From the NCBI GenBank assembly GCA_000146465.1, contig CP001944.1: 64,000 bases of DNA. One strand, given 5' to 3'. The notes under the pieces were generated by a model that was given only the letters and a program-made list of their open reading frames with translations, did not search any database and was not told the origin of the DNA. The translations under genes were made by a program, and so were the position numbers. Positions 38,175 to 39,385 of the stretch are shown piece by piece. The stretch's first letter is position 1, and the number at the start of each line of letters is the position of its first letter.

Positions 38175-38726
38175 ATGAAGGTTCTACTATTTGCCATTGG
38201 AGTTCTGTGCAGGAGAATAAAGCTAGAGCCCAAGGAGCAGTTTGTATTCAGAGATAAGGTCACGGCAAACCAGATGTACAAGTTTATGTATCAGGCTCCA
38301 CGATCTGGAAAAATCGAGATGACGGTGTTTGATACAAAAGGAAGACAGATGATCAAGACTCGAGACCCGTACTCGGTGCTGTACTCCAAAATGAATGAGG
38401 ATGGAGAGATTGTGATATCTGTTAAGAACAACAGTTCAAAAGGCATTAACTTTGGCTACAGATGCCCAGACACCAGCAAGAAAGCTCAAGGAGACCTTGG
38501 GCCAATAAGCGTTGATTTGGTTTCGGAGCTCCAAGAAGTCCTAGAGACAATCATTCAGGCCCAGAGAGTTCACATCAAGAAACATGAAGAACATGCAAGG
38601 ATGGTTGCAGGATCAAGGAAGTGGGTTACAAGGCTCTTGATCTTTGAAACCCTCTTCTTCACAGGTGTACTGTACTTCTTGCACAAGGATATGCTGAAGA
38701 TGTTTGAAACCAAAAGAGAAGTTTAA
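38175..38726 (+). CDS. p24/emp24 (GOLD-domain) cargo receptor.
   Basis: Signal peptide, GOLD-like beta region, a coiled-coil segment, and a single TM ([16 protein letters not shown]) with a short basic tail. This is the canonical p24 layout. Confidence 0.75.
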
Positions 38727-39385
38727 TTAAAGGACTCAACTCTTCTAAAAAGCCTTATGATTTCATTTGCTGTCTCTTCTAATGTCATGGCGTCGTTCTC
38801 AATGACCACAGAGCCACTAGAAGCAACAAGGGGGCCGTGTTCTCTTGTCCTATCATCATTGTCTCTTTTCGATATGGCATCGAGCAGCTTTTCATAGGAT
38901 TCCGATCCATTTTCCTTATATCTTCTCCTTGCCCTCGTCTCCGGGCTTGCCGTAAGAAATACCTTCAGATCTGCGTCAGGCATTATCTCGGTAGCTATGT
39001 CTCTTCCATCAACAATTATTCCCTTCTTTTCAAGATCTATTGTGGATCTTTGGATTTCCGACACCTTTTCTCGGACATACTTTTCCTTTGCAACGGAACC
39101 AACATTATTATCAATCTTTTCCCCACGGAGATGCCCAGATACATCTTTTCCATCAATAAATACTCTATTGTCTCTTACCTCTATGTTCAATCCAAGAACA
39201 AACTTTTTCTGATTCTCGTCCTTGGGGCACACCTTCTCAAACTGCCTTGCCAGGGCATATGTCACGGCTCTGTACAGATTCCCAGATATCAGATGAGAAA
39301 AACCCAGTTTCTTTGCAACAAGATCAGATGTGCTGCTTTTTCCACTTGCTGCAGGCCCGTCAACGGCAATCTTATACACTTTCAT
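38723..39385 (-). CDS. cmk: Cytidylate kinase, bacterial Cmk type.
   Basis: [41 protein letters not shown], then [33 protein letters not shown] and [20 protein letters not shown]. Collinear with bacterial Cmk (IAIDGPSGAGKGT...DGRDMGTVVFPDA..K.FL.AS.EERA.RR). Start at the ATG at 39385 to avoid overlapping the upstream gene. Confidence 0.75.

Follow-up and report, generated by a model that had tools for sequence, protein, structure and literature searches.

A bacterial-type cytidylate kinase gene in the microsporidian Encephalitozoon intestinalis, probably acquired once from a bacterium

We analyzed a stretch of 64,000 nucleotides from contig CP001944.1 (GenBank assembly GCA_000146465.1) of the microsporidian Encephalitozoon intestinalis, called the window below, with attention to an open reading frame (ORF) that the original prediction had described as a bacterial-type cytidylate kinase (Cmk). 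As judged from its sequence, the ORF is a real, conserved gene for a bacterial-type kinase of cytidine monophosphate (CMP) and dCMP, and it is the orthologue of the cytidylate kinase gene on E. cuniculi chromosome III. The predicted protein has 220 amino acids (aa), as does the public NCBI protein, and is 100% identical to the entry "cytidylate kinase [Encephalitozoon intestinalis ATCC 50506]"; the proteins of E. romaleae, E. cuniculi, and E. hellem are 80, 78, and 75% identical to it, respectively. A longer ORF in the mechanical ORF list, starting from a TTG at 39469, was rejected because it runs into the upstream gene and because the public protein is the 220-aa form. Our preferred explanation, which we regard as probable, is a functional cytosolic (d)CMP kinase that was acquired once from a bacterium by an early microsporidian ancestor, was inherited vertically, and later became the sole annotated kinase of uridine monophosphate (UMP) and CMP where the eukaryotic enzyme URA6 was lost. 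The gene and its main sites are as follows.

38723..39385, minus strand: Cmk coding sequence, with the ATG at 39385, 220 codons, and a TAA stop; matches PF02224, TIGR00017, and, at 100%, the public protein
39335..39358, minus strand: P-loop GPAASGKS, residues 10 to 17, the ATP phosphate-binding site, fitting GxxxxGK[ST]
38999..39010, minus strand: DGRD, residues 126 to 129, equivalent to E. coli D129-G130-R131-D132 and invariant in the family alignment
38843..38866, minus strand: RDNDDRTR, residues 174 to 181, holding the equivalents of E. coli R181, D185, and R188, a segment that orders on CMP binding

The protein belongs to the Cmk family. It matched the Pfam model PF02224 (Cytidylate_kin) with an E value of 8.7e-59 and 199.2 bits (cutoff, 26) across profile positions 1 to 210 of 211, and it passed the NCBIfam cmk model TIGR00017 with 182.9 bits against a cutoff of 135.55. 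These full-length matches bear out the original claim that the ORF at 38723-39385 is collinear with bacterial Cmk, and the motifs quoted in its favor are all present (the P-loop segment at residues 6 to 17, DGRD at 126 to 129, and the segment at 174 to 186). The adenylate kinase (AK) family model PF00406 found no match in the protein. Models of that family reached 17 to 19 bits against cutoffs of 168 to 315, in the P-loop only; for TIGR01360 and TIGR01351 the values were 17 to 18 bits against cutoffs of 168 to 284. An adenylate kinase surfaced in the PDB search with an E value of about 1e-3, confined to the P-loop. The archaeal Cmk model TIGR02173 gave 35.6 bits against a cutoff of 102.1 and covered part of the protein only. 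Among known structures, PDB 7L4A, titled "Cytidylate kinase," is 78% identical across all 220 residues and corresponds to the E. cuniculi sequence; the remaining PDB relatives (1Q3T, 2H92, 3R20, 3R8C, 4E22, 1KDO, and 3AKC) are all bacterial Cmk. The hit lists on which the following statements draw held the best 120 to 150 sequences each, three top-120 lists among them. The best matches were Cmk rather than the eukaryotic UMP-CMP kinase, and a broader eukaryotic Cmk clade did not appear among the matches listed.

The enlarged domain of Cmk that binds the nucleoside monophosphate (NMP) is an insert not found in other NMP kinases. By alignment, the window protein appears to carry this Cmk-specific domain together with a short LID, collinear with E. 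coli Cmk over residues 63 to 110 with one 6-residue gap. Cmk forms a family apart and has an NMP-binding domain of its own. To call the architecture of the eukaryotic UMP-CMP kinase unrelated was an overstatement, since the P-loop NMP kinases include Cmk as well as the AK-type UMP-CMP kinases (PMC3603445). The window protein has no N-terminal extension and starts 5 residues ahead of the P-loop strand.

The active site was mapped by pairwise alignment with E. coli Cmk (sequence identical to 1KDO), and it is intact. E. coli residues S36, Y40, R41, R110, R131, D132, R181, D185, and R188 correspond to S34, Y38, R39, R105, R128, D129, R174, D178, and R181, respectively; all are kept, and the mapped positions are invariant or nearly so across the microsporidian and bacterial alignments. 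P-loop residues G10, G15, K16, and S17 are invariant in the family alignment, as are R174, D175, D178, and R181. For the enzymes of Yersinia and E. coli, phosphate contacts are assigned to R41 and R131 and cytosine contacts to S36, R110, and D132, with Y40 stacked on the base; in E. coli Cmk, R131 contacts the CMP phosphate and D132 the cytosine; D185 and R188 lie on a segment that orders upon substrate binding, and replacing R110, R131, or R188 with alanine abolishes activity (PMC3603445). In some Cmks of the microsporidian clade, including that of Vairimorpha apis, the DGRD segment is replaced by EGRD (P0300, P0156, P0138, P0174, P0219, and P0131).

The gene is under purifying selection, with a ratio of nonsynonymous to synonymous substitution rates (dN/dS) of 0.09 against E. 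cuniculi and 0.12 against Ordospora, dS being saturated in these comparisons. Orthologues in Edhazardia (EDEG_01278) and Vavraia (VCUG_00888) are transcribed according to RNA sequencing tables (PMC4435813). Taken together, the intact active site, the dN/dS, and the transcribed orthologues point to a gene that almost certainly encodes an active (d)CMP kinase, presumably cytosolic. A literature search found no publications on the activity of a microsporidian Cmk. The enzyme would move the gamma-phosphate of ATP onto CMP or dCMP, giving CDP or dCDP, and a nucleoside-diphosphate kinase would then turn these into triphosphates. A parasite without de novo nucleotide synthesis would thereby recycle cytidine nucleotides from RNA and DNA turnover and from CDP-dependent reactions.

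The surroundings of the gene bear on whether it belongs to this genome, and they comprise the following features.

38175..38726, plus strand: p24/EMP24 cargo-receptor gene of eukaryotic type, the downstream neighbor (PF01105, E value of 1.1e-16)
38723..38726, no strand assigned: convergent 4-base overlap of Cmk and p24, with both TAA stops within the palindrome TTTAATTAAA
39386..39422, minus strand: 37-bp spacer ahead of the Cmk ATG, reaching to the stop codon of the preceding gene and holding GATTTAAAGAG.AGG.TTTTT.TATCCC
39423..40697, minus strand: 424-aa ORF, the upstream neighbor, with no Pfam match; syntenic ORFs occur in E. cuniculi (426 aa) and Ordospora (429 aa)
40741..41871, plus strand: ThiF-plus-rhodanese gene, Uba4/MOCS3-like (PF00899 and PF00581)

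Further eukaryotic neighbors identified by Pfam are GPI2 and a Ctu1-like PP-loop ATPase. The gene had been described as lying between ordinary eukaryotic genes, p24 and a WD-like protein; the first of these is indeed eukaryotic, but the WD-like label could not be confirmed for the 424-aa ORF. The predicted secondary structure of that ORF is almost all beta, and a single-sequence AlphaFold model of it was unusable (predicted local distance difference test score, 34.5). E. cuniculi chromosome III (AL590443.1) and Ordospora colligata have the same gene order, namely, ThiF, 42x-aa ORF, Cmk, p24, GPI2, PP-loop ATPase, WD40, RPL3. The Cmk gene of Vavraia culicis (VCUG_00888) directly adjoins the UBA4 orthologue VCUG_00889 (PMC4435813, supplement). 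A UBA4-type gene thus stands one gene away from Cmk in Encephalitozoon and Ordospora and next to it in Vavraia, which suggests that the linkage predates the Encephalitozoon/Vavraia split. Such proximity is unusually deep microsynteny for Microsporidia. The GC content of the Cmk gene is 0.425, and that at third codon positions is 0.403, inside the distribution of the window genes (0.424±0.034 and 0.465±0.059, respectively). The gene is compositionally indistinguishable from its neighbors and stably integrated in the genome.

Both ends of the gene are tightly packed. At its 3' end, the palindrome TTTAATTAAA occupies 38717..38726, and E. intestinalis, E. cuniculi, and Ordospora colligata have exactly the same junction (L091, ~5654..5663; L090, ~5648..5657). 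Because the same stop-codon junction recurs in three species, the 3' transcript ends of Cmk and p24 would overlap obligatorily. At the 5' end, the sequence GATTTAAAGAG.AGG.TTTTT.TATCCC just upstream of the Cmk ATG is common to E. intestinalis and E. cuniculi and is not found in Ordospora. The 37-bp spacer presumably contains the whole putative promoter and 5' untranslated region, and the conserved motif may be a candidate minimal element of it.

Cmk orthologues are widespread in Microsporidia, occurring in about 17 named genera. Named ones were found in Encephalitozoon (four species), Ordospora (two species), Pancytospora, Vairimorpha, Nosema, Hamiltosporidium, Enterospora, Vavraia, Spraguea, Edhazardia, Astathelohania, Tubulinosema, and Anncaliia, and two metagenomic members of the clade lie in eukaryotic contexts (tubulin, Kelch, and Rpn8 in one case; condensin, PGK, and uS13 in the other). 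No eukaryote outside Microsporidia with a Cmk appeared among the matches listed or the named top representatives. All non-microsporidian relatives among the matches listed are bacterial and at most 44% identical. The closest of them, at 43 to 44% identity, sit in the contexts rluB-cmk-rpsA-der-gpsA or scpA-scpB-rluB-cmk-sprA. The best genome matches in GTDB, at 34 to 42% identity, included a Clostridium metagenome-assembled genome (MAG), Anaeroplasma, Treponema, Acholeplasmatales, and Veillonella, among others, and the best named bacteria in profile searches were Acholeplasma, Dialister, Megasphaera, Anaerococcus, and Oscillospiraceae. One metagenomic protein of 454 aa, P0130 (L089, 722..2086), ranked second in the exhaustive search and has two complete tandem Cmk domains. 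It belongs to a cluster of 28 members, and its only called neighbor with a Pfam match is a GT87 glycosyltransferase. We provisionally took P0130 to be bacterial rather than microsporidian.

Three neighbor-joining trees were built with Kimura distances from about 216 trimmed columns and contained 171, 280, and 337 taxa; all were unrooted. In every one of them, all known microsporidian Cmks fell in one clade, beside Bacillota- or Mollicutes-like sequences. In the 337-taxon tree, the 17 named microsporidia (17/17) were found in one 44-taxon clade without a named bacterium, and they stayed together within a clade of no more than 60 of the 337 taxa in 62% of 200 bootstraps. The nearest neighbors of each named microsporidian Cmk were other microsporidia. 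Support independent of the trees came from five signature states (S34, a residue other than Ala at 36, L86, a residue other than Ser at 96, and N197), at sites picked after the clade was seen: of 20 named microsporidian sequences, 16 carried all five and every one carried at least three; outside the clade, 226 of 477 sequences had none and a single one had four. The spacer between the RxxRR and RDxxD motifs was tried as a unique microsporidian trait and dropped: it measures 17 to 18 residues in most microsporidia and 22 to 23 in most bacteria, but several bacterial groups have 17 to 20. As far as residues and trees go, the microsporidian copies probably share a common origin, and a single acquisition is likely.

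In light of the distribution, the single clade, and the bacterial relatives, the proposal that this bacterial Cmk in a microsporidian genome is a candidate horizontal transfer holds up; descent from a bacterial gene explains the data best. The transfer is ancient and common to microsporidia rather than particular to E. intestinalis. The course of events would have been one horizontal transfer from a bacterium into the nuclear genome of an early microsporidian ancestor, full domestication of the acquired gene, and vertical inheritance thereafter.

Several points weigh against this reconstruction, besides the choice of signature sites after the fact. The bacterial sample in the trees was skewed toward the sequences most like the queries, and the exact microsporidian clade had a bootstrap of 0.5 to 22%, depending on the tree. 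Deep distances within the microsporidia are about 0.9, against about 1.0 to bacteria, which is near saturation. All three trees are distance trees. Since they are unrooted and biased by similarity, placing the gene as nested within bacteria rests on phyletic distribution and not on a rooted tree. More distant PF02224 genes may occur in other eukaryotes beyond the matches listed. Rozella, Paramicrosporidium, Mitosporidium, the metchnikovellids, and Nematocida were absent from the named matches listed, and no search was aimed at them; dating the transfer by early-branching relatives was dropped, as no named sequence from them was among those matches. The nearest sequences are mostly from Bacillota and Mycoplasmatota, and the donor cannot be named. 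An attempt to name its lineage was given up because the nearest bacteria change with the query (a Clostridium MAG, Anaeroplasma, Acholeplasmatales, Treponema, Veillonella, Dialister, Megasphaera, Oscillospiraceae, and a Bacteroidota contig), with bootstrap support for none.

The low strict bootstrap also leaves room for several independent bacterial transfers that gave different microsporidian lineages their Cmk, and in 31% of replicates the smallest clade with all named microsporidia exceeded 80 taxa. Yet five common signature residues nearly absent from bacteria, the closeness of each microsporidian to other microsporidia, and the Cmk-Uba4 linkage common to Encephalitozoon and Vavraia all speak for one event, and we consider repeated transfers unlikely. 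The same unrooted and poorly resolved tree is compatible with microsporidia as a separate deep branch, and their Cmks are roughly equidistant from all bacterial groups, as might be expected had a PF02224-type Cmk of the eukaryote or opisthokont ancestor been inherited vertically and lost nearly everywhere but in Microsporidia. However, no other eukaryote was among the best matches of any search, and the BLAST matches of Heinz et al. (2012) were bacteria and Microsporidia only, with no KOG. Vertical inheritance would also require very many independent losses, and the AK-type URA6 is the eukaryotic enzyme, still present in Vavraia. We regard this history as quite unlikely.

A third source to be weighed is endosymbiotic gene transfer from the alphaproteobacterial ancestor of the mitochondrion or mitosome, with retention in Microsporidia alone. 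Cmk is universal in bacteria, so that the mitochondrial ancestor must have carried one. Against this, alphaproteobacteria supplied 0 of the 80 best genome matches, the nearest named bacteria being Bacillota, Mycoplasmatota, Treponema, and Bacteroidota, and the protein lacks an N-terminal extension. Neither a chlamydial nor an alphaproteobacterial affinity of microsporidian Cmk was seen among the matches listed or in the neighbor-joining trees, and an endosymbiotic origin seems very improbable. Bacterial contamination or misassembly, judged improbable from the start on account of the eukaryotic neighbors, is refuted by the conserved synteny, as the gene overlaps the eukaryotic p24 by 4 bases, lies 37 bp from another gene, has the composition of its neighbors, including a host-like GC content, and occupies the same locus in the independently sequenced E. 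cuniculi and Ordospora genomes.

With a single acquisition from a bacterium as the preferred history, the remaining question concerns the pyrimidine kinases alongside which Cmk works. On whether a canonical UMP-CMP kinase exists elsewhere in the genome, the evidence is divided. Under EC 2.7.4.14, the curated Table S1 of Heinz et al. (2014) lists one gene each, the Cmk, in E. cuniculi (ECU03_1270), N. ceranae, and T. hominis (orf_1000), and a PyrH-type UMP kinase is entered there for none of the three (PMC4256464). We take ECU03_1270 to be the chromosome III gene, inferring this from its locus tag and contig AL590443.1. Vavraia, in contrast, has both enzymes: Desjardins et al. (2015) reported a cytidylate kinase and a URA6 orthologue (VCUG_01245) in V. 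culicis and a cytidylate kinase only in E. aedis (PMC4435813). Since Cmk and URA6 coexist in Vavraia, Cmk was gained before URA6 was lost in some lineages, that is, by addition and then replacement. Lineages that later lost the AK-type URA6, by the curated table including Encephalitozoon, would have been left with Cmk as the only annotated UMP/CMP kinase, and E. intestinalis presumably lacks URA6 likewise. In a six-frame scan of the 64-kb window for the P-loop pattern G.PG.GK[GST][TS], no AK-family kinase was found; the sole match, GFPGTGKTT on the minus strand, lies in an AAA-type ATPase-like ORF.

Two positions set the microsporidian enzymes apart. The equivalent of E. coli Ala38 (residue 36, Asn in E. 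intestinalis; about 39278..39280, minus strand) is kept in 87% of 291 bacterial Cmks and in 0% of the microsporidian ones, and the equivalent of Ser101 (residue 96, Gly in E. intestinalis; about 39098..39100, minus strand) is kept in 94% of the bacterial and 14% of the microsporidian sequences. Residues 36 and 96 both lie in or near the NMP-binding pocket. Ser101 reportedly contacts the pentose; a literature search for E. coli Cmk Ser101 returned nothing. Ala38 sits in the Ser36-Ala38 loop at the ligand site (PMC3603445). Eukaryotic AK-type enzymes accept UMP as well as they do CMP; the substrates of bacterial Cmk are CMP and dCMP, and its activity with UMP is only low (PMC3603445). It is conceivable, though we hold it doubtful, that Cmk is the only pyrimidine NMP kinase where URA6 and PyrH are lacking and that the pocket changes broadened its specificity, for example, to efficient phosphorylation of UMP. 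The residues that read cytosine, equivalent to S36, R110, and D132, are all still in place, and the sequence therefore predicts no change of base specificity. If true, the broadened specificity would close the unexplained UMP-to-UDP step of microsporidian pyrimidine recycling, and Cmk would be an essential, host-absent drug target with a solved structure at hand.

The gene and its annotation were already public, as were a crystal structure of the orthologue and the idea of a transfer, and the present analysis adds little beyond confirmation. Heinz et al. (2012) named T. hominis orf_1000 a weakly supported candidate for bacterial transfer; it had BLAST matches in bacterial phyla and Microsporidia only, had no KOG, and was present in 5 of 5 microsporidia compared (PMC3486916). 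What is added here is support for a single ancient acquisition from signature residues, the Cmk-Uba4 linkage, and the wide taxon distribution; the coexistence of Cmk and URA6 in Vavraia, by which acquisition preceded replacement; and a lineage-specific change of the NMP pocket in microsporidian Cmk that is open to biochemical testing. Cmk is a conceivable drug target because the animal host has no counterpart of the same family.

Compared with known systems, the nearest is E. cuniculi Cmk (ECU03_1270; 7L4A), a species-level orthologue with 78% identity over 220 residues, the same neighbors, and the same stop overlap with p24, from which no functional difference is expected. T. hominis orf_1000 belongs to the same family and carries the same claim of bacterial origin, the evidence for which was there called weak; the wider taxa, the signature residues, and the synteny are new here, and the donor is unnamed in both studies. 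The bacterial enzymes of E. coli (1KDO), S. pneumoniae (1Q3T), S. aureus (2H92), and Yersinia (4E22) are collinear with the window protein over the full length at 33 to 44% identity, and it keeps their P-loop along with every arginine and aspartate, and the serine, that bind CMP. It differs from them in a spacer between RxxRR and RDxxD that is 4 to 5 residues shorter, as also in some bacteria, in the loss of counterparts to E. coli Ala38 and Ser101, and in being encoded by a monocistronic nuclear gene rather than in a cmk-rpsA-der operon. The eukaryotic AK-type UMP-CMP kinases (yeast URA6 and human CMPK1) perform the same step, EC 2.7.4.14, with the same general P-loop NMP-kinase fold, but they are a different family. 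The NTT ATP/ADP translocases from Chlamydiae, thymidine kinase, and the NupG-like transporters share the theme of bacterial genes serving microsporidian nucleotide scavenging. For the NTT genes, a chlamydial donor is well supported and experiments have characterized the products; neither holds for Cmk. It stands beside the NTT transporters and thymidine kinase as a further case of Microsporidia rebuilding nucleotide salvage with bacterial genes.

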